From the NCBI GenBank assembly GCA_023663725.1, contig JAMPGX010000008.1, positions 16,477 through 80,476 of the forward strand: 64,000 bases of DNA. Reading direction: 5' to 3'. The stretch's first letter is position 1. Each line of letters opens with the position of its first letter. Below, piece by piece: positions 53,480-64,000 of this stretch. Under the pieces are notes generated by a model. It was not told the origin of the DNA and ran no database searches. It saw only the letters and a list, made by a program, of their open reading frames with translations. The position numbers and the translations under genes were made by a program. The stretch is from a bacterium. Its GTDB lineage: Bacteria > Bacillota > Clostridia > Lachnospirales > Lachnospiraceae.

Positions 53480-54601
53480 ATGAATGTCTTGATATTGACA
53501 GGTAAATTTGGCATGGGACATTGGAGTGCGGCCCAGTCCTTGCGACAGGAGCTACTGGGCAACCATCCGGATGCGGCGGTGGAGGTGGTGGACTTTCTCT
53601 CCTATGCCATGCCTAATTTTTCAGGAATCCTCTATAAAAGCTTCAACCTGATGGTCACTCATGGACGGCATCTTTTCAATATGTATTATCGCGCTACAGG
53701 AAAGGGACATCCGGATGCCCACCCGCTCTTTGCGGGAATGCTTCTGGACCATCTGGCGATGCTTCTGCGCCGGAAGCGTCCCGATGTGGTGATAGCCACG
53801 CATCCTCTGTGCGCGCAGCTCATGTCTCTGCTTAAGGAGAAAGTTGCAGGCGTTGAGGCGGTCTGTGCAGAGGAACAGGATATGTTGAGACTGCCTTTGA
53901 TAACATGTGTTACTGATGTGAGCTCCCATCCGGAGTGGATTAATCGCAATACAAACTGCTATCTGGTGCCCAGTGAGGAAATCCGCAGAAGTCTGGCGGA
54001 AAAGGGTGTCAATCCCGCTTTAATCTGCGTCACTGGCATTCCGGTCAGAGAGGAATTTCGTCATCTGTCCCGCTGCGGAGAGGAGAAGGAGAGGGAGCTG
54101 TTAATCATGGGAGGCGGCCTTGGTCTGTTGCCGGCAGGTACTGCTTTTTATGAGGCGTTAAATGGGATTCCTCATACACATATAACTATTATCACGGGCT
54201 GCAACAGGCGTTTGTATCAGCGCCTACATGGGAAATGGGATAATATTCAAGTGGAAGGGTATGTCAACCAGGTCTGGGACTATATGGCCAGGGCGGATCT
54301 GATTGTCTCCAAGCCGGGCGGAATCACTCTGTTTGAGGCTATTTTTGCCAGAGTGCCTATTCTTTCCTGGCCGCCGACCCTGCAGAATGAGCGCAGCAAC
54401 GCCAGATGGATGGTTGAAAAGGGGATTGGCTGGGTGGCAGGGCGGAAGAATTGTGTCGAGGAAATACAGGAGATATTGTTGGATCAGAAGCGATTGGCTG
54501 AGGCGTCATATCGCATGGAGTGTCTCAGAAGACAGCTGCAGGAGGTAGCTTTGGACCGCAAGATGGGCGAAGTGCTCAGGGAGGGGAGGCCTGCCGTATG
54601 A
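53480..54601 (+). CDS. MGDG-synthase/UgtP-like glycosyltransferase (GT28)
   Basis: GMGH, VIATHP, TGIPVR, MGGGLG, KPGGIT..EA. Confidence 0.88.
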   Translation: MNVLILTGKFGMGHWSAAQSLRQELLGNHPDAAVEVVDFLSYAMPNFSGILYKSFNLMVTHGRHLFNMYYRATGKGHPDAHPLFAGMLLDHLAMLLRRKRPDVVIATHPLCAQLMSLLKEKVAGVEAVCAEEQDMLRLPLITCVTDVSSHPEWINRNTNCYLVPSEEIRRSLAEKGVNPALICVTGIPVREEFRHLSRCGEEKERELLIMGGGLGLLPAGTAFYEALNGIPHTHITIITGCNRRLYQRLHGKWDNIQVEGYVNQVWDYMARADLIVSKPGGITLFEAIFARVPILSWPPTLQNERSNARWMVEKGIGWVAGRKNCVEEIQEILLDQKRLAEASYRMECLRRQLQEVALDRKMGEVLREGRPAV

Positions 54602-55716
54602 TGGAGGGAAAGAAGAAATATCTGGGCGGGCTGCTCCTGGCGTTGCTGATGGCGGTAACAGGAGGTGTGTTGCTCAGAGGGCAGTCTTTTGGTCTGCTGT
54701 GGGAGAGCCTGAGACGGATAAAGCCGCTTTTTGTGATGGGCGGTCTGGCCCTCATGCTGGGGTATGTGGGCTGCGAGGCTATGTGTACTCATCAGATTTT
54801 GAGGCGGCTGGGACATCAGGTTCCTTATATGCGTTGTCTGGGCTATTCCTTTGTGGGATTTTATGTGAGCTCCATCACCCCCTCTGCCACAGGGGGACAG
54901 CCGGCTCAGGTCTATTGCATGAGCCGAGATCGGATCCCAGCGGCTCATGGGACGCTGAATATGATGCTGATTGCCGCCTGCTACCAGGTGGCAGCTCTGG
55001 TCTGGGGCGGCGGAGTCTGGCTGTTATGTCCCCGGATGGAGGCGTTTGAAGGCGGGATGGGAATATTGCTCCTCTATGGGGCCGGAATAATGCTTCTGCT
55101 TACGGCAGGTATGACCATGCTCATGTTTCTGCCCGGTTTGTCCCGACGCATTGGCGAGGGTATTCTGAGGTTGTTGACGGCTATGCGGATACTGCGCAGC
55201 CCTGACCTGGCCCGCAGAAAGCTGGAGCGTCAACTGGAGGAATACGCGAAAGGAGCGGCGTGCGTGAGGAGCAATCCAGGGCTGACCTTACAGGTGTTCC
55301 TACTGTGTCTGGTTCAGCAGGGGATGCTGTTTTCCGTGCCCTGGACCGTCTATCTGGCCTTCGGGCTGCGAGGCTGTAGCTGGATACAGCTTGCAGGGCT
55401 CCAGGCGCTTCTCACTCTGGCTGTCTGTAATCTGCCCTTGCCCGGAGCGGTGGGACCCGCGGAGGGTGGGTTTGTGGCGGCGTTTACCGCAGTATTTGGA
55501 GCGGGGACAGTGACGCCCGCCATGCTGGTATCCAGAGGAATCAGTTTCTATGCGTTTCTGCTGGTCAGCTTTATAGTCTCCATCTTCGTGCATCTGCGCA
55601 TCCGGCGTCAGGACAGGGAACACATGTTGAGGGAGAAGACAGTTTCCCGCAAAGATGAACGGGTGAGGGCGCTGCCAGGTCAGTTGCGAACAGTTGGAAG
55701 CCAGAAGGTATGCTAA
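54598..55716 (+). CDS. Lysylphosphatidylglycerol-synthase TM / UPF0104 flippase-like protein
   Basis: ITPSATGGQP, PLPGAVGPAE, SRGISFY motifs. Confidence 0.85.
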   Translation: MMEGKKKYLGGLLLALLMAVTGGVLLRGQSFGLLWESLRRIKPLFVMGGLALMLGYVGCEAMCTHQILRRLGHQVPYMRCLGYSFVGFYVSSITPSATGGQPAQVYCMSRDRIPAAHGTLNMMLIAACYQVAALVWGGGVWLLCPRMEAFEGGMGILLLYGAGIMLLLTAGMTMLMFLPGLSRRIGEGILRLLTAMRILRSPDLARRKLERQLEEYAKGAACVRSNPGLTLQVFLLCLVQQGMLFSVPWTVYLAFGLRGCSWIQLAGLQALLTLAVCNLPLPGAVGPAEGGFVAAFTAVFGAGTVTPAMLVSRGISFYAFLLVSFIVSIFVHLRIRRQDREHMLREKTVSRKDERVRALPGQLRTVGSQKVC

Positions 55717-55799: not shown

Positions 55800-56564
55800 A
55801 TGGATAAAAGGATAGGTGCGCAGTATTATACCCTGAGAGATTATGCGACAACGCTGGAGGACTTTGAGGAGACCTGCAGAAAGGTGAGCGAGATAGGTTA
55901 TAAAATCGTACAGATATCAGGGACTCCGCTGGGGGCGGCTGAGATGAAAACGGTGCTTGACCGCTATGGTCTGGAGGTGGTCACTACCCACAGGAGCTTT
56001 GAAGATTTCCAGAAGGATCTGAGGGAAATTATGGATTACAACCGAACGCTGGGCTGCAAGCTCTGCGGCATTGGTTCCATGCCGGCATGGGCGAGGGAAA
56101 GTGAGGAGAAGCTAAGCCGCTTTATCCATGAGGCAAATGAGATGGCTGTGCAGTTGGAGAAGGAAGGGTTCTATTTTGGATATCACAATCATGCCTTCGA
56201 GTTTGCCAAAATTGACGGAATATTTATTATGGACCGTCTGATAGAAGAGACGAATCCCCATTCCTTCCGCTTTATTGTGGATACCTATTGGCTTCAGGTG
56301 GGCGGTATGGATCCCGTATCGTTTATTGGCAAGCTGGGCGAGAGAGCCATGGCGATTCATTTCAAGGACCTGAAGGCCAATATAGACAACACAACGGAGA
56401 TGGCAGAGATCGGGGAAGGGAATCTCAATTGGGATGGAATCATTGAGGCCTGTGAGAAGGCGGGGGTCGAGTGGGCGCTTGTGGAACAGGACGTCTGCAG
56501 GCGCAGCCCTTTTGAAGCGTTGAAGATTAGCTATGACTATCTGACGGGAAAGGGATTTATCTGA
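55800..56564 (+). CDS. Sugar phosphate isomerase/epimerase (TIM barrel)
   Basis: YHNHAFEF, DTYW, HFKD, VEQD. Confidence 0.88.
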   Translation: MDKRIGAQYYTLRDYATTLEDFEETCRKVSEIGYKIVQISGTPLGAAEMKTVLDRYGLEVVTTHRSFEDFQKDLREIMDYNRTLGCKLCGIGSMPAWARESEEKLSRFIHEANEMAVQLEKEGFYFGYHNHAFEFAKIDGIFIMDRLIEETNPHSFRFIVDTYWLQVGGMDPVSFIGKLGERAMAIHFKDLKANIDNTTEMAEIGEGNLNWDGIIEACEKAGVEWALVEQDVCRRSPFEALKISYDYLTGKGFI

Positions 56565-56748
56565 CCAGAGAGCTATTCATGATGCATATCGGCCTCGGCG
56601 GAGAGGAAAACAGCGTATGCAATAAGGGCTGTTTTCCTTTTTTTGTCTGTACAGGGACTCTTTTTTCCTGTAAAATAATATGACAGGAAATGAATGACAG
56701 AGTTTGGAGGGAAAGAGGCAAGAGGTGAGCAGAGAAGAGCAGGCGGAG

Positions 56749-59502
56749 ATGAATACCAGGTTGGTTGTGGGTATTCTGGCCCATGTGGATGCGGGCAAAA
56801 CTACATTGGCGGAGGGTATACTGTATCTGACAGGGGAGATTCGCAGGCTTGGCCGAGTGGATCACGGTGATACTTTTCTGGATACCCATGCACTGGAGAA
56901 AGCCAGGGGTATCACTATATTCTCCAAACAGGCGCAAATCAGTGTTGACTGTATGGGTCAAACACGAGAGATTACTCTGTTGGACACGCCGGGGCATGTG
57001 GATTTTTCCGCTGAGACAGAGCGCGCCCTGCGGGTGTTGGATGCAGCTATTCTGGTGATCAGCGGGGCCGACGGGGTACAGGGGCATGTGGAGACTCTTT
57101 GGAGCTTGCTGAAGCGCTATGGCATTCCCACTTATCTGTTTGTCAATAAAATGGATCAGCCGGGCGTAGAGCCACAGGCGTTATTAAATCGGCTGCAGGA
57201 AGAGCTGGATGAGAACTGCGTGGATTTCACGGATGCCGACAGCTATGTGGGAGTGGAGGACGCAGATGATGTCGTCCGCAGCCAGCCGCGGTATGCCGGA
57301 TGTCTTACGCGGGAGCAGTGGATGGAGAAGGTGTCTCTGTGCAGTGAGGAAATGCTGGAAGCATATCTGGAGCGGGGAGAGATCACGGTGCGGCAAATTC
57401 GTGAAGCCGTCCGCAGGCGACAGCTGTTTCCCTGCTATTTTGGTTCCGCTCTGAAGCAGCAGGGGATAGTGGAGCTGTTGCAGGGAATTGCCCGATATAC
57501 CTATGAGCCTGTCTATGGTTCAGAGCTGGCTGTACGGGTGTACAAGATAGAGCGGGATTCAGGCGGTAATCGTCTCACCAATCTGAAGGTTACCGGCGGG
57601 AGTTTGAGGGTGAAGGGATTGCTGGGTGGGGAGAAGATCGACCAGATCCGTATTTATTCAGGGGCCGGATATCGGCTGGTGGATGAGGTGAAGGCTGGGA
57701 CAGTCTGTGCTGTCACGGGTCTTACCAAAACATACAGCGGTCAGGGGCTTGGAGCCGAGCCTGACGGAGAAAAGCCAAGTTTGGCGCCAGTGCTGAGCTA
57801 TCGCTTGGAATTGCCTGAGGGAGCGGACGTTCATAGCATGCTGAGGAACCTTCGCCAGATGGAGGAGGAGATACCGGAGTTGCACATTTTGTGGCAGGAG
57901 AGCAGCGGGGAGATACACGCACAGGTCATGGGGCAGGTGCAGACGGAAATATTGCAGGAGTTGATTGCTGAGAGATTTGGCGTACAGGTTTCCTTTGGGG
58001 AAGGTAGCATCGTATATCAGGAGACAATACTGGAGCCGGTGGAGGGGGTAGGACATTTTGAACCGTTGCGTCATTATGCCGAGGTACATCTGCTTCTTGA
58101 GCCGGGAGAGGCGGGCAGTGGAATCGCACTGCGGGCCGACTGCATTGAAGACGAGCTTGACAGGAACTGGCAGAGATTGATTCTGACGCATCTGGAGGAA
58201 AAGCAGCACACAGGGGTATTGACCGGATCAGCCATAACGGATATGCGGATTACCCTGATTGCCGGAAAAGCGCATCAGAAACACACGGAAGGCGGAGATT
58301 TCCGGCAGGCCACCTATCGGGCGCTTCGCCAGGGGCTGATGAAGGCCAGGAGCCGTCTGCTGGAGCCGATGTATGCCTATACACTGGAGCTGCCCACAGA
58401 GAATCTGGGGCGGGCCATGAGTGATATTCAATTGAAAAGTGGCAGCTTTGAAGCTCCAGAGACGCAGGGGGATCGAAGTATTCTGCGGGGGATAGCTCCA
58501 GTGGCGACTCTGAATGGTTACCAGATGGAGGTGAGCGCTTACACCAGAGGCAGAGGGAGACTTTCCTGTCGCTTCCACGGTTATGCGCCTTGTCACAATG
58601 AGCAGGAGATAATTGACAGTCGGGGTTATGATCCGGAGTGCGACACGGACAATCCGGCGGCATCGGTTTTCTGTGCCCATGGCGCTGGATTTGTTGTGCC
58701 GTGGAATCAAGTGGAAAGCTATGCCCATGTTGATGCAGGAGACAGGCTGCGTCAACTGCTGCCGGAAGTATTTGGGCAGTCTGGCGGGGAGCGGGACAAT
58801 CCGATGGGACAGGGCACGATAAAAGCTCTGCAGAACAGTGCCAGGGAAAGGGAGGAGCGGTTCATCAGTCAGGAGGAGATAGAGGAGATATTTCTGCGCA
58901 CTTACAGAACGAAGGCGTTGGATAGAAATCCGTGGAATCGTCCCGCGTCCTCCGGAAAAGCACATGTGGTTTCCCGAGAACCGGTCTATAAGGGTACAAC
59001 GGAGCGACAGGAGAGGTATCTTCTGGTGGATGGCTACAATATCATTTTTGCCTGGGAAGAGCTGCGGGAGATAGCCAGAGACAATGTGGAAGGCGCTCGC
59101 GGCAGGCTGATGGATATCCTGTGCAACTATCAGGGTTATATTCAGGATACTCTGATTCTGGTGTTTGATGCCTATAAGGTAAAGGGCAATCCTGGCACAG
59201 TGCAGAGATATCACAATATCCATGTAGTCTACACGCGAGAGGCTGAGACCGCCGACCAGTATATAGAGAAGACAGTGCATGTAATCGGCAGGAAATATCA
59301 GGTGACGGTGGCGACCTCTGATGCGCTGGAACAGGTGATTATCTGGGGGCAGGGGGCATCCCGCATGTCGGCCGAGGAGCTGCGTCGGGAAGTGGACAGC
59401 TGTGCGCGGCAGCGCATGGAAGAATGGCGGGAACGACAGGCGGGCGGGCGCTTTTTCACTATGGAGGAGAAGCTGCAGCAGATGGAATTGCCTGAGCGCT
59501 AA
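56749..59502 (+). CDS. TetM/EF-G-like translational GTPase fused to a YacP/Rae1-type NYN ribonuclease
   Basis: AHVDAGKTT, RGITI, DTPGHVDF, NKMD; from 59011 YLLVDGYN...LVFDA...ETADQYIE...ATSD..EQ. Confidence 0.88.
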   Translation: MNTRLVVGILAHVDAGKTTLAEGILYLTGEIRRLGRVDHGDTFLDTHALEKARGITIFSKQAQISVDCMGQTREITLLDTPGHVDFSAETERALRVLDAAILVISGADGVQGHVETLWSLLKRYGIPTYLFVNKMDQPGVEPQALLNRLQEELDENCVDFTDADSYVGVEDADDVVRSQPRYAGCLTREQWMEKVSLCSEEMLEAYLERGEITVRQIREAVRRRQLFPCYFGSALKQQGIVELLQGIARYTYEPVYGSELAVRVYKIERDSGGNRLTNLKVTGGSLRVKGLLGGEKIDQIRIYSGAGYRLVDEVKAGTVCAVTGLTKTYSGQGLGAEPDGEKPSLAPVLSYRLELPEGADVHSMLRNLRQMEEEIPELHILWQESSGEIHAQVMGQVQTEILQELIAERFGVQVSFGEGSIVYQETILEPVEGVGHFEPLRHYAEVHLLLEPGEAGSGIALRADCIEDELDRNWQRLILTHLEEKQHTGVLTGSAITDMRITLIAGKAHQKHTEGGDFRQATYRALRQGLMKARSRLLEPMYAYTLELPTENLGRAMSDIQLKSGSFEAPETQGDRSILRGIAPVATLNGYQMEVSAYTRGRGRLSCRFHGYAPCHNEQEIIDSRGYDPECDTDNPAASVFCAHGAGFVVPWNQVESYAHVDAGDRLRQLLPEVFGQSGGERDNPMGQGTIKALQNSAREREERFISQEEIEEIFLRTYRTKALDRNPWNRPASSGKAHVVSREPVYKGTTERQERYLLVDGYNIIFAWEELREIARDNVEGARGRLMDILCNYQGYIQDTLILVFDAYKVKGNPGTVQRYHNIHVVYTREAETADQYIEKTVHVIGRKYQVTVATSDALEQVIIWGQGASRMSAEELRREVDSCARQRMEEWRERQAGGRFFTMEEKLQQMELPER

Positions 59503-59664
59503 TAATGCAGGCTTGCGGTATGCGGAAAGAGGAAATGAGAATATGTCGGATTAAGTCATATAAGAGTAGGATTTGTGCATTGTGTCCAAAGTCGGGAGAG
59601 TATATACTTATCATAAGTGTCTCCGCGGTCCGAATATGGGCGGTGGGAGTGTGGGAGGAATCCT

Positions 59665-60693
59665 ATGAAAAAAAGAGTGGCTATCGTGGGATGTGGGCAA
59701 ATTTCACAGGTACATGCCCAGGTTCTTGACGCGATGGAGGAAGTCGAGCTGTGTGCTTTTGTTGACAGCAGACCGGAGCACGCGCAGAAGCTTGCGGAGC
59801 GGTATGGCAGGGACAGGGCGGGAGTATATATGAGACTGGAGGATATGCTAAAAGCCGAGCATCCTCAGGTGGTACATATCTGCACGCCTCATTATCTTCA
59901 TGTGCCTATGGCCGTCGAGGTGCTGGACGGCGGTGGGTCGGTATTTATGGAGAAACCACAGGCGATCTCAGAGCGGCAACTCGCATGTCTGGAGCAGGCG
60001 GCGGAGGAAAGCGCCGGAACTCTGGGAATCTGTTTCCAGAACAGATATAATGCGTCGACCCACAAGGTTGATGAGCTTCTTCGGGAGGGCAGTCTGGGAA
60101 AAATACAGGGGGCCAGAGCCTTTGTCACATGGAACAGGGACGCGGCTTACTATCAGAACAGTGAGTGGAGAGGAAGCTGGACCACGGAGGGCGGCGGCGC
60201 GCTGATTAATCAGTCGATACATACTCTGGACCTATTGCTGCGATGGCTGGGGGAACCGGATTATGTGGAAGCGTCGATGAAAAATCATCATTTAAAAGGG
60301 ATAATAGAGGTGGAGGACACGGTGGAGGCTTTTCTGGGATTTCCCGACGGCGAGAGAGTCTGTTTTTACGCTACTACTGCCTATGTGTCAGACGCGCCTG
60401 TGCTGATTGAGCTTGCCTGTGAAAACGGCAGCGTCCGATTGGAGGGAGAAAGGGTAACGGTCAAATACCTGCGGGGAGAGGAGACGGTATATCTGCTAAA
60501 ATCGGGAGATGTTGCGGGTAAGGCATATTGGGGAAGCGGCCATGCCGCCTGTATCAAAGATTTCTACCGCAGTCTTGACGGGAAAGCGGAGTTTGGTAGC
60601 AGTCTTGCAGCGACAGCCAGCACTCTGCGAGTCATGATGAAAATGTATCAAAGCGCCGGAGTGTGTCGGCAGGAGGAAGAGAAACAGGTTTGA
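59665..60693 (+). CDS. Gfo/Idh/MocA oxidoreductase
   Basis: IVGCGQI, CTPHYLH, EKP, GGGALINQSIHTLD. Confidence 0.92.
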   Translation: MKKRVAIVGCGQISQVHAQVLDAMEEVELCAFVDSRPEHAQKLAERYGRDRAGVYMRLEDMLKAEHPQVVHICTPHYLHVPMAVEVLDGGGSVFMEKPQAISERQLACLEQAAEESAGTLGICFQNRYNASTHKVDELLREGSLGKIQGARAFVTWNRDAAYYQNSEWRGSWTTEGGGALINQSIHTLDLLLRWLGEPDYVEASMKNHHLKGIIEVEDTVEAFLGFPDGERVCFYATTAYVSDAPVLIELACENGSVRLEGERVTVKYLRGEETVYLLKSGDVAGKAYWGSGHAACIKDFYRSLDGKAEFGSSLAATASTLRVMMKMYQSAGVCRQEEEKQV

Positions 60694-60734
60694 TTCGGTG
60701 TCGCATAAAGAGCGGTATGCGGGAAAGGAGAGAG

Positions 60735-61889
60735 ATGGAACAGGTTAGGCTGGGAATCATTGGGATCGGCGGCATGGGCAGCAATCATGCCAGAAGTATT
60801 GTGGAGGGCAAAGTGCCGGAGATCAAGCTGTCGGCAGTAGCCGACATCAGAGACGCGCGGAGAGATTGGGCGGAGAAGGAGCTCCCGTCAGAGGTGGCTG
60901 TCTACGGTGACGGAAAAGAGCTTATTGAGAGCGGGAGCTGTGACGCGGTGCTGATTGCCACCCCCCACTATCTGCATCCGGAGCTTGTGATCTATGCTCT
61001 GGAGCACGGGCTCCATGCGATCAGCGAGAAGCCCGCGGGGGTCTATACCAAACAGGTGCGGGAGATGAACGAGGTGGCAGAGAAATCTGATAAGGTCTTT
61101 GCCATCATGCTGAATCAGAGGACAAACTGCGTTTACCGCAAGATGCATGAAATGATCTCCAGCGGTGAACTGGGACAGATCAAGCGGGTGAACTGGATTA
61201 TCACGGATTGGTATCGCACGCAGAGCTATTATGATGCCGCCGATTGGAAAGCTACATGGGACGGAGAGGGCGGCGGTGTGTTGCTGAATCAGTGTCCTCA
61301 TCAGCTGGATCTGATGCAGTGGCTGTGCGGAATGCCTGTTCGAGTTCGCGCTTTTTGCCATGAGGCAAAGTGGCACGACATCGAGGTGGAGGATGATGTG
61401 ACAGCTTATATGGAATATGCGAACGGAGCTACGGGCGTCTTTGTCACCACCACAGCCGATGCTCCCGGCACCAATCGGCTGGAAATTACGCTGGAGATGG
61501 GCAAGCTCGTATGCGAGGGAGGCAAGCTTCTCCTGTATCGTCTGAGTGAGAATGAGAGAACTTTCTGCAGGACCTCCAAGGAGGGGTTTGCACAGCCGAA
61601 GTGCGAGCTGGAAGAGGTGGAGACGGACGGACAGAACGAGCAGCATGTGGGTGTGCTGAAAGCCTTTGCAGCCAGAATTCTTCACGGCGCCGAGCTGGTG
61701 GCGGAGGGGACCGAGGGGATCAGAGGCCTCACTCTGTCCAATGCCATGCACCTCTCCAGCTGGCTGGACCGTATGGTGGAGCTTCCCTTTGACGAGGAAC
61801 TGTTTTTGCGGGAGCTGAATAAAAAGCGGGCTACTTCCAAGAAAAAGACAGGGAGCGGCGCGGTGTTCGATACCACGGGAACCTATTGA
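60735..61889 (+). CDS. Gfo/Idh/MocA oxidoreductase
   Basis: IGIGGMG, ATPHYLH, EKP, GGGVLLNQCPHQLD. Confidence 0.92.
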   Translation: MEQVRLGIIGIGGMGSNHARSIVEGKVPEIKLSAVADIRDARRDWAEKELPSEVAVYGDGKELIESGSCDAVLIATPHYLHPELVIYALEHGLHAISEKPAGVYTKQVREMNEVAEKSDKVFAIMLNQRTNCVYRKMHEMISSGELGQIKRVNWIITDWYRTQSYYDAADWKATWDGEGGGVLLNQCPHQLDLMQWLCGMPVRVRAFCHEAKWHDIEVEDDVTAYMEYANGATGVFVTTTADAPGTNRLEITLEMGKLVCEGGKLLLYRLSENERTFCRTSKEGFAQPKCELEEVETDGQNEQHVGVLKAFAARILHGAELVAEGTEGIRGLTLSNAMHLSSWLDRMVELPFDEELFLRELNKKRATSKKKTGSGAVFDTTGTY

Positions 61890-61956
61890 TATCGGGTAGA
61901 GGGAACTTTTAATCATAGGCAATTCACTGATTATAACATTTTGAAAGGGGAAAAAC

Positions 61957-62808
61957 ATGTTTAAGAATATTACTTTGACGGGATTTGCGGATGAGATCGC
62001 AGCGTCTCTCGACACCCAGATGCAGGTGCTGGACAAATTACAGATGAAGCATATTGAGATGCGCGGAGTGGATGGCAGGAATTTTGTGGAATATTCAGAA
62101 GGCGAGGCTCGGCAGATCAAAAAGCGTCTGGAGGACAGGGGATTCTCCCTCTCCGCTGTGGGCTCTCCCATCGGAAAGATCAGGATTACCGATGATTTTG
62201 CCCCTCATATGGAATTGTTCAGGCACACGGTGGAGCTGGCCCACATCATGAATACCCCCAATATTCGGATGTTCAGCTTCTATGGCCCAGAGGGAGAGTC
62301 CGATTCCTCGTCCTGGCGGGCGGAGGTGATGGAGCGGCTGGGGCAGTTTGTGGATTATGCGGCTGCCAACGGGATTGTTCTGCTCCATGAGAATGAGAAG
62401 GGAATTTATGGGGAGATGGCCCAGGGCTGTCTGGACATTTTAAAGCAGTTTTCGGGGGAGCATTTCAAAGCGGTGTTTGACTTTGCCAATTTTGTTCAGG
62501 CCGGGCAGGATACCCTGGAGGCTTTTGAGATGCTGAAGCCCTATATCGCCTACATCCATGTAAAGGACGCGCTGGGTAAAGATGGAAGCGTGGTCCCCGC
62601 AGGCTATGGGGACGGCAATGTGAAGGAGATACTGGGTCGTCTGAAAGCTGACGGTTACAGCGGTTATCTGTCTCTGGAGCCTCATCTGTCAGATTTTACC
62701 GGCTTTTCCGCTCTGGAGAAGGACGGCAGGATAGGAAAGAAGCTGTCCGGAGAGGAGGCATTCACGCTGGCCCATGACGCGCTGGTGAAAATTCTCGAAC
62801 AGCTTTAA
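61957..62808 (+). CDS. Sugar phosphate isomerase/epimerase (TIM barrel)
   Basis: GFADEI, HENE, FDFANF, HVKD, LEPH. Confidence 0.9.
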   Translation: MFKNITLTGFADEIAASLDTQMQVLDKLQMKHIEMRGVDGRNFVEYSEGEARQIKKRLEDRGFSLSAVGSPIGKIRITDDFAPHMELFRHTVELAHIMNTPNIRMFSFYGPEGESDSSSWRAEVMERLGQFVDYAAANGIVLLHENEKGIYGEMAQGCLDILKQFSGEHFKAVFDFANFVQAGQDTLEAFEMLKPYIAYIHVKDALGKDGSVVPAGYGDGNVKEILGRLKADGYSGYLSLEPHLSDFTGFSALEKDGRIGKKLSGEEAFTLAHDALVKILEQL

Positions 62809-62852
62809 GCAGACTGACAGCGAGCGTTTGCCGCTTGCAAGGAAAGGTAACG

Positions 62853-62883
62853 CAAAGGGGTGATGCCAGACATCACCCCTTTG
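62853..62883. terminator. Hairpin between convergent genes
   Basis: CAAAGGGGTGATG / CATCACCCCTTTG, 13-bp perfect stem. Confidence 0.8.
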
Positions 62884-62892
62884 ATTCATGTG

Positions 62893-63879
62893 TTACAGCT
62901 TCTTCACGGGCCTGACGTATTTCCAGAACCGTTCAGGGTCGTGATACAGGTAGCCGATCCTGCCAGGAGTAGTGTCCAGACAGTAACCGGAAGCCTGATA
63001 ATCAAAAGTATTCATTGCCTCCTCTATCCTGTCCTCGACGCTGCGGTTCTCATGCTCATAGTCAAACGGGCCGTGTTCGAAGACGATATACTCGCCCTCC
63101 GGCACATCCATCATGAGCATCTGCGACGGCATCTCTCCGCTGTAGTCCGCAGGCAGGCGAACCCCATAGCATTCCGCCAGAGGGATGCCCCAGGAACAGA
63201 TTCGTCCCTTCGGGTCATTGAGATAACCTACAAGCTGGCCGCTGCCACTGTTCTCCTCGCTGCTGCCCTCGTCGTCGAGCTTGCCCTTGATGCTGGACAG
63301 CAGGCCGCAGATTGTCTCACAGTCCTGTCCGGGAATCTGACTCTGCTTCTGCCAGAAATCCCAGTAGCCAATGCTCTCGTAGTTCCTGATATGCAGGAAT
63401 TTGTGCGCGGGGACGGTTACAAAATAAATCTTGATCTCATCTGTGGATTGTATCATGCCTATTTCTCCCATTCCAAAAAAGTAGCGGTCGAAGGTGTGTA
63501 TCTTGGTGCGTAGCGTCACGGGAACAGGGTTTTTGCGGTACTCGCTGGGCGTGATCCCATAAGCTGTCTTAAAAGCTCTCGTGAAAGCCTCATGGGAGGA
63601 AAAGCCGTAGTCTACAGCGATATCCAGGAATCCGCGGCCTTTGTCCCGCACCTCCCAGAGAGCGAATGCCAGCCTGCGAAGCCGCAGATACTCACGAAAC
63701 TGCATTCCTGAAATCTCCCGAAATTTCCTGGTGACATAAAACTCAGAATATCCCAGCCGGTCGGAGAGAGAACGCAGTGTCAGAGCATCATCCTGACGCC
63801 TTCGGATGCATTCATCAATTTCATCAATAATGATCTGAATCTGTTGTTGCCACTCGTACATGTACCTGTCTGCCTCCAC
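62893..63879 (-). CDS. AraC family regulator with C-terminal effector-binding domain
   Basis: LGYSEFYVTRKF, IAVDYGFSSHEAFTRAFK. Confidence 0.92.
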   Translation of the reverse strand: MEADRYMYEWQQQIQIIIDEIDECIRRRQDDALTLRSLSDRLGYSEFYVTRKFREISGMQFREYLRLRRLAFALWEVRDKGRGFLDIAVDYGFSSHEAFTRAFKTAYGITPSEYRKNPVPVTLRTKIHTFDRYFFGMGEIGMIQSTDEIKIYFVTVPAHKFLHIRNYESIGYWDFWQKQSQIPGQDCETICGLLSSIKGKLDDEGSSEENSGSGQLVGYLNDPKGRICSWGIPLAECYGVRLPADYSGEMPSQMLMMDVPEGEYIVFEHGPFDYEHENRSVEDRIEEAMNTFDYQASGYCLDTTPGRIGYLYHDPERFWKYVRPVKKL

Positions 63880-64000
63880 ACCATATTTTACAGATATCTG
63901 TCTACATCATTTCAACCACCCTGAGATCAGTATAGCTGAGTGGAGAGGTAAATGCTTGATTTTACTTGCTATTATAGCAAGGGCAGAACGATATGTAAAT

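Follow-up and report, generated by a model that had tools for sequence, protein, structure and literature searches.

What does a translational GTPase do with a ribonuclease attached to its C-terminus? The question is raised by one gene in a 64,000-nucleotide stretch of DNA from a bacterium of the Lachnospiraceae (assembly GCA_023663725.1, contig JAMPGX010000008.1, positions 16,477 to 80,476). This whole stretch is called the window below, and positions refer to it unless a contig is named. In the protein encoded there, a ribosomal-type GTPase is joined to a Rae1-type nuclease in one polypeptide, an observation that was confirmed in this study. A TetM-like/NYN_YacP fusion in Clostridia was noted earlier by Atkinson 2015 (BMC Genomics 16:78, PMC4342817) and by Matelska et al. 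2017 (NAR 45:6995, PMC5499597), who described its role as 'unclear'. With identical architecture (G domain to domain V, then NYN_YacP) and taxon, the window protein is a member of that group. The first-pass annotation of the window knew of no characterization, and none was found in the literature up to November 2026. On balance, we lean towards reading the fusion as the form that Rae1 takes in Clostridia, equipped with its own module for targeting ribosomes.

A single uninterrupted open reading frame (ORF) spans 56704..59502 on the plus strand, and translation from the ATG at 56749 gives 917 amino acids. This ATG is equivalent to the position at which the homologues start, three to six residues before the P-loop strand. 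Pfam detected, in order, GTP_EFTU (residues 5-250, E 5e-49), EF-G_D2 (262-328, weak and under its cut-off), EFG_III (347-417), EFG_IV (420-533), EFG_C (536-618), and NYN_YacP (PF05991; 758-911, E 2e-48, 165.1 bits vs. a gathering cut-off of 24.6). The first-pass annotation had described a complete GTPase from the G domain to domain V, a linker, and an NYN domain with acidic motifs, and both Pfam and the alignment agree with this description at 56749-59502. The features of the gene, with the evidence for each, are as follows.

56749..59502, plus strand: coding sequence of the GTPase-NYN fusion protein, stop codon included (ORF, Pfam, homologues)
56749..57498, plus strand: G domain, residues 1-250 (Pfam, alignment)
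57499..58002, plus strand: domains II and III, residues 251-418 (Pfam, AlphaFold2 (AF2) model)
58003..58350, plus strand: domain IV, residues 419-534 (Pfam, alignment)
58051..58089, plus strand: domain IV loop I, GHFEPLRHYAEVH, residues 435-447, specific to the family, with two residues fewer than in Tet (alignment)
58270..58305, plus strand: domain IV loop III, AHQKHTEGGDFR, residues 508-519 (alignment)
58351..58602, plus strand: domain V, residues 535-618 (Pfam)
58603..58728, plus strand: conserved extension of 42 amino acids after domain V (post-V extension), residues 619-660 (alignment, AF2)
58729..59013, plus strand: flexible tether, residues 661-755 (alignment, AF2)
58873..58905, plus strand: short conserved helix within the tether, EEIEEIFLRTY, residues 709-719 (alignment, AF2)
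59014..59388, plus strand: NYN_YacP/Rae1-type nuclease core, residues 756-880 (Pfam, PDB match, alignment)
59389..59499, plus strand: C-terminal helical tail of variable sequence and length, residues 881-917 (alignment, AF2)

The fusion ORF is no assembly artefact, because the same single-ORF architecture was found in more than 120 protein clusters (58-86% identity to the window protein) and, at 45-54% identity, in full-length fusions from 19 further taxonomic families, each with one representative. The expectation that the architecture would already be in databases was thus borne out, and it had been in print in 2015 and 2017. The model of the whole protein matched EF-G structures (Foldseek E 1e-53, template modelling (TM) score up to 0.74 on target), and in the AF2 model the folded domains are linked through a low-confidence tether. 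The gene is a vertically inherited chromosomal gene of this Lachnospiraceae genome, whose nearest named relatives are Acetatifactor.

Conservation was analyzed in an alignment of 21 fusions from 20 families, five Tet classes, and three EF-G-type proteins. As judged from this alignment, both halves are under selection across the 20 families. The G motifs of the window protein are AHVDAGKTT (G1, residues 11-19), DTPGH (G3, 79-83, with the catalytic His83), NKMD (G4, 133-136), and GSAL (G5, 232-235). The GTPase should be active, because these motifs are invariant in all 21 fusions (AHVD(A/S)GKTT, RGITI, DTPGH including the catalytic His, NK.D, and GSAL). Domain IV is the most conserved region: its mean identity to the window protein is 71%, and that of the G domain about 49%. 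At the tip of domain IV stand sequences that are private to the family and strictly conserved, GVGHFEPLRHYAEVH and, in loop III, AHxKHTEGGDFR; the family consensus of loop I is GVGH(F/Y)EPL(R/K)HYAEVH. The first-pass annotation had singled out the loop HQKHTEGGDFR as unlike that of Tet, which the alignment upheld: residues 509-519 align with YSPVSTPADFR in Tet and with HDVDSxxxAFR in EF-G.

Domain V is followed by the 42-residue extension, which reads ..PC.N..EVI...GY-D.E.D..N...SVFC.HGAGF.V.W..V..Y.H across the family and shows 52% identity to the window protein. It is predicted to be folded (AF2 predicted local distance difference test score (pLDDT) of 65-88 in 10-residue blocks), matched no Pfam model, and was not present in the aligned Tet and EF-G proteins. 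Two Cys residues in or just before this extension (615 and 642, encoded at 58591-58593 and 58672-58674) are invariant in all families and are flanked by His residues that are often conserved. A zinc site was considered and found unlikely, as only these two Cys are invariant across families, which is too few ligands.

The tether is variable (identity 0.01-0.15), rich in charged residues, and predicted to be disordered (pLDDT 30-45). Its length is about 95 amino acids in the window protein and 63-77 in most other families, and the helix within it has the family consensus (D/E)EL..IFE.TYG. The nuclease core beyond it matches YacP/Rae1 of B. subtilis (PDB 5MQ8/5MQ9, E 1e-28) and carries the acidic motifs LLVDGYN (758-764), VFDAY (805-809), ETADQ (833-837), and ATSDA (855-859). 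A GYN motif after the first Asp and four conserved catalytic Asp residues are the defining features of NYN_YacP (PMC5499597), and both the GYN motif and Asp761, Asp807, Asp836, and Asp858 were invariant in 61 homologues and 21 families. Fused NYN domains are 45-57% identical to standalone Rae1 proteins with all motifs kept, and the domain is predicted to be a catalytically intact Rae1/YacP-type endoribonuclease. An inactive NYN domain or a fusion lacking conservation had been named as grounds for giving up the first-pass reading; what was found is a fusion kept across 20 families with all four Asp residues intact. Rae1 of B. subtilis shares with the fusion the GYN motif, the four Asp residues, and the C-terminal helices. 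It differs in being a single-domain protein of about 170 amino acids encoded in the operon gltX-cysS-mrnC-rlmB-yacP (PMC5499597), whereas in the fusion the NYN domain is the C-terminus of a 917-residue protein in an unrelated and non-conserved gene context.

Is the GTPase half a tetracycline resistance protein, as the source names of its homologues ('TetM/TetW/TetO/TetS family') have it? The best NCBIfam model was indeed tet_protect (NF012153), although its 406.4 bits are about half of the curated cut-off of 775. The models specific for Tet(M/O/Q/W) and Otr(A) all scored far under their cut-offs, and the EF-G models were likewise below theirs (TIGR00484, 277 vs. 659 bits; NF009381, 303 vs. 583 bits). 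The protein is 28-31% identical to the authentic proteins Tet(M), Tet(O), Tet(Q), Tet(S), Tet(36), and TetB(P), and thus about as similar to them as to EF-G (28%). A three-group tree without LepA and TypA did not place either Tet or EF-G as the nearer relative, but rooting did. In the rooted tree, with LepA and TypA of the window genome itself as outgroups and five Tet classes sampled, Tet and the fusion-type GTPase family formed a clade against EF-G (support 100/99). Fused and GTPase-only members together formed a clade of their own (100/100), which is sister to Tet and not nested within it.

Tet(M) and Tet(O) (PDB 3J9Y, 4V6V) thus represent the nearest known lineage. They share with the fusion GTPase the five-domain EF-G-like build, a similar length, and the lack of the long G' insert of EF-G. 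They differ in all three domain IV loops, of which the fusion family strictly conserves its own forms, and where TetM has its C-terminal helix region the fusion has the other, conserved 42-residue extension. EF-G (fusA) has the five-domain fold, the intact GTPase centre, and the G motifs in common with the fusion, and the domain IV His of its SYHDVDS loop is the sole loop III residue common to the fusion tip; its loop I, SGGRGQYG, is replaced and shortened in the fusion, and the window genome has a separate fusA. In Tet, loop III reads YSPVSTP, and its Pro509 overlaps the tetracycline site at C1054; in the fusion, this drug-site loop is replaced by the family-specific form. The loop sequence alone is not decisive on drug protection, because S508A/P509A/V510A mutants of Tet(M) are still active. 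The fusion gene is single-copy and chromosomal, its distribution follows taxonomic families and is not of the patchy kind left by horizontal gene transfer, and neither a mobile-element context nor a recurring gene family was found around it (33 loci compared), unlike tet genes, which spread on transposons. Taken together, these features argue against a tetracycline resistance protein and for a distinct, Tet-related sister lineage.

The distribution of both halves was determined in 399 Clostridia genomes of at least 90% completeness. As these genomes are related, the counts describe a pattern and are not independent statistical support. NYN_YacP gave 267 matches in 263 genomes, about one per genome. 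Among the 150 matches listed, 85 were fused (frames of 734-934 amino acids) and 63 standalone (frames under 260 amino acids), and most taxonomic families were either all-fused or all-standalone. With domain IV and the extension as query, the GTPase family was retrieved in 167 genomes, mostly fused and in single copy. Atkinson and Matelska et al. had listed about ten species, with the GTPase filed as 'Tet'. Both GTPase and NYN domain were present in 158 genomes, the GTPase alone in 9, the NYN domain alone in 105, and neither in 127. In fusion carriers, the fusion is the only Rae1 homologue; likewise, the single NYN_YacP match of the window genome (3.63 Mb, 96% complete) is the fusion itself. 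Named records of fusions come from Acetatifactor, Blautia, Pseudobutyrivibrio, and Monoglobus, and further fusions come from genomes with no label beyond Lachnospiraceae, Oscillospiraceae, or Clostridiaceae. CAVJLG010000039.1, a Bacteroidota bin labelled Barnesiella intestinihominis, also holds a full fusion (50% identity), and CP033372.1, an oddly large 'plasmid' of Limosilactobacillus fermentum (760 kb), holds an unannotated match (48% identity); both look like mis-binned or mis-assigned Clostridia DNA.

The GTPase also occurs unfused. Proteins of 636-660 amino acids with the same loops and the post-V extension end a few residues beyond that extension, and together they make up the sister clade (98/93) of the fused GTPase clade (100/99). 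Members include proteins of Neobacillus cucumis and of a Bifidobacterium avesanii record, and a more divergent relative with the same loops is found in Intestinibacter bartlettii (37% identity). The Bifidobacterium avesanii protein, from the isolate record of DSM 100685 (NZ_WBSN01000021.1), has 54% identity and carries the same loops and extension, which points to horizontal transfer from Firmicutes or to contamination. Unfused GTPase and standalone rae1 occur together in eight genomes of family f38 and in genomes G396 and G240; nine other genomes carry the unfused GTPase and no NYN homologue. There is no linkage where both genes exist, and in G316 and G376 more than 1 Mb lies between them. 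G316, a member of f38, is the only sampled genome with two GTPase copies, encoding unfused paralogues of 655 and 656 amino acids (C1:578467-579186 and 1256918-1257637) besides a standalone rae1.

All fused NYN domains fall into one supported clade (96/97), together with one standalone protein each from G240 and G286; an approximately unbiased (AU) test did not reject strict monophyly of the fused NYN domains (p = 0.38). Because the fused NYN domains form one clade and the fused GTPases another (100/99), the trees fit a single ancient fusion that was then retained. In the simplest history, the Tet-sister GTPase with its domain IV tip would have come first, rae1 would have been fused once to its 3' end, and the separate rae1 would have been lost; in a few lineages, the NYN domain would later have become free again. 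Plain gene fission in G240 was rejected, as the tree places the GTPase-only gene of that genome in the unfused sister clade and not among the fusions. The standalone NYN proteins of G240 and G286 showed no remnant of the tether helix.

How the two halves might work together is best considered in the light of what is known of Rae1. Its cleavage is translation- and frame-dependent and leads to rescue by transfer-messenger RNA (tmRNA) (PMC10351889). Cutting takes place 12 nt upstream of the stall, where the stalled ribosome has its tail end (PMC12407103), and cleavage is stimulated by collisions (bioRxiv 10.64898/2026.10.09.757949, 10.64898/2026.09.23.753862). Because of these two results, an earlier A-site docking model for Rae1 (PMC10351889) has been superseded and is no longer its authors' picture; no structure of ribosome-bound Rae1 has been reported. 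The two preprints also draw an analogy with Smr-domain factors. SmrB/Cue2/NONU-1 and MutS2 would do the same proposed job, cutting messenger RNA (mRNA) at the boundary of collided ribosomes; they have no homology to the fusion, which would use a factor-site GTPase and not a disome-interface binder.

If the fusion is a Rae1 with its own targeting module, the GTPase half would dock at the factor-binding site of a ribosome that has stalled or is caught in a collision, where the conserved His/Lys-rich tip of domain IV would read the state of the A site or decoding centre. Docking would keep the NYN domain close enough, on its tether, to reach the mRNA at the edge of the ribosome, the reported place of the Rae1 cut. 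The NYN domain would cleave the mRNA, GTP hydrolysis would then free the factor, and upstream ribosomes running to the new 3' end would be passed to tmRNA rescue. On this model, the nuclease must act at tether distance from the factor site. Trailing ribosomes of disomes are held in the rotated pre-translocation (PRE) state, the natural substrate of EF-G, and the mRNA entry of the trailing ribosome abuts the exit of the leading one. Docking on the trailing ribosome would bring the nuclease near the reported cut site, and docking on the leading ribosome, in the manner of TetM with an empty A site, would require the tether to wrap round the 30S subunit.

Several points weigh against this proposal. 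A long way separates the factor site of a stalled ribosome from its 5' edge, where Rae1 is reported to cut, and the model would require either a long tether that spans this distance or docking on the trailing ribosome. Standalone Rae1 of B. subtilis works without such a GTPase. Furthermore, nine of the 167 GTPase carriers are without any NYN homologue, the unfused sister clade keeps the same loops and extension with no linkage to rae1, and, conversely, G286 has a fused-clade NYN domain and no such GTPase. Because of the unlinked unfused clade and the nine NYN-less genomes, the GTPase must have a nuclease-independent role of its own, and the coupling may be looser than 'delivery'. The first-pass annotation had proposed a factor, powered by GTP, that brings an RNase to ribosomes that have stalled. 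Delivery is still the best reading, as an inference, but it has to be corrected for the earlier reports in print, the distance that the tether must bridge, and the separability of the halves.

A broader reading, which we regard as possible and put forward tentatively, centres on the GTPase. It would represent an unrecognised translational GTPase family that is the sister of Tet, is marked by the His/Lys-rich domain IV tip and its private post-V extension, and acts as a sensor of stalled or collided ribosomes, with Rae1 as its partner in cis in most Clostridia and in trans where a standalone rae1 is present (f38, G396, and G240).

It is rather unlikely that the halves are independent, with the fusion only securing co-expression or stoichiometry. 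Rae1 would then find collided ribosomes itself, as in Bacillus, and the GTPase would have a job of its own, e.g., rescue, splitting, or translocation on problem ribosomes. The unlinked genes, the genomes in which one partner occurs without the other (the nine GTPase carriers and G286), and a poorly conserved, presumably disordered tether fit such independence. They have to be set against a single ORF kept in at least 20 taxonomic families with loss of the separate rae1, against a tether with a narrow length range in most families and a conserved internal helix, and against the fact that both proteins work on the ribosome, under related circumstances.

Alternatively, the nuclease could target ribosomal RNA (rRNA) or transfer RNA (tRNA) and not mRNA, making the fusion a device that, guided by its GTPase, matures or inactivates ribosomes or turns over damaged or idle ones. 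The original prediction for NYN_YacP, based on its operon with mrnC and rlmB, was a role in rRNA/tRNA processing (PMC4342817, PMC5499597). An EF-G-like body would put its cargo beside rRNA elements, and the GTPase-only clade shows a ribosome-directed role without an mRNA nuclease. We consider this unlikely, as the experiments on Rae1 itself revealed translation- and frame-dependent mRNA cleavage followed by tmRNA rescue (PMC12407103, PMC10351889), and the close similarity of the fused NYN domain to standalone Rae1, together with its position as the only Rae1 homologue in carriers, makes retained function the simplest assumption.

That the protein is a tetracycline ribosomal protection protein, possibly one that adds an RNase to resistance as Atkinson 2015 suggested (PMC4342817), is very improbable, because the model score, the clade, the loop III motif with Pro509, and the mobile-element context all fail, even though its lineage is the sister of the Tet proteins. 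Equally improbable is that the H-x-K-H / H..R-H tip is itself catalytic.

The surroundings of the gene were inspected for further hints. Two features precede it.

56605..56644, plus strand: terminator-like hairpin after the upstream gene, with a 10-bp stem (GGAAAACAGC/GCTGTTTTCC), a 13-nt loop, and a T7 tail (direct reading)
56648..56676, plus strand: promoter-like site TGTACA, 17-nt spacer, TAAAAT (consensus match; four sites vs. 2.5 expected by chance)

The hairpin was skipped by the automatic scan, its loop being longer than 8 nt; placed before the fusion gene, it suggests that the gene starts its own transcript. No conserved neighbourhood was found, the best recurring neighbour being present in 6 of the 33 fusion loci, and the GTPase-only loci likewise had no informative neighbourhood. 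No match to an anti-phage defence system was returned by PADLOC.

In the window, the gene has lipid genes on one side and a sugar/inositol-type cluster on the other. The latter, at 55800-62808 around the fusion, looks like a catabolic cluster, with two xylose-isomerase-like triose-phosphate isomerase (TIM) barrels and two Gfo/Idh/MocA oxidoreductases; it has no apparent functional link to the fusion, and the neighbours differ in other genomes. At 53480-55716, the genes for a glycosyltransferase resembling monogalactosyldiacylglycerol synthase and for a lysyl-phosphatidylglycerol-synthase transmembrane region lie on one strand with an overlap of about 80 nt and may form a glycolipid or aminoacyl-lipid pair. 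Towards the end of the window (62500-64000), the guanine-cytosine (GC) skew falls from about +0.2 to -0.08, which may reflect a change of coding strand or a replication-related switch.

The window genome encodes tmRNA. No Smr domain (MutS2/SmrB) was matched in it; in its family, 59 of 60 genomes have a Smr protein of MutS2 size alongside the fusion. Replacement of MutS2/SmrB by the fusion was rejected on these counts, and the absence of Smr from a 96%-complete genome is most likely an assembly gap. Two further EF-G-type genes of the genome deserve mention. A second EF-G-like paralogue (C28:10995-11354, frame of about 700 amino acids) has degenerate G motifs, namely GHGGSGKT, DTPGY, and, in place of NKxD, SNMD. 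It is EF-G2-like with a very long branch, and its GTP hydrolysis may be abnormal, to judge from these motifs. The canonical fusA (C48:1-2100), truncated where the contig begins, lies upstream of the window at a distance of about 15 kb and has a large domain IV insertion relative to other EF-Gs, PLEANCEKFEFDPKANILINEPP.

The fusion architecture itself was already known. New are the recognition of the domain IV tip as the best conserved feature, the post-V extension, the rooted placement as sister of Tet, the unfused clade that is unlinked to rae1 and whose carriers sometimes lack rae1, the pattern of one NYN domain per genome, and the rejection of MutS2 replacement. The GTPase emerges as a distinct and widespread paralogue, present in about 40% of the sampled Clostridia, including dominant gut taxa. 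Its automatic annotation as TetM/TetW/TetO/TetS-family resistance inflates tet counts in gut resistome surveys, and the evidence argues against that label.

Rae1 cutting on stalled or collided ribosomes was shown in 2025-2026 by two groups, and covalent fusion to a factor-site GTPase is a strong hint as to how Rae1 may be recruited there. The natural fusion also offers a convenient handle for cryo-electron microscopy. Although not a new discovery, the fusion is a good and timely lead on how bacteria cut messages on stuck ribosomes. If the broader reading, with the GTPase as a sensor of stalled or collided ribosomes, is true, the protein would show the working place of Rae1 on the ribosome, and these Clostridia would have a GTPase-guided no-go-decay module of bacterial type, functionally comparable to Hbs1-Dom34 plus Cue2.

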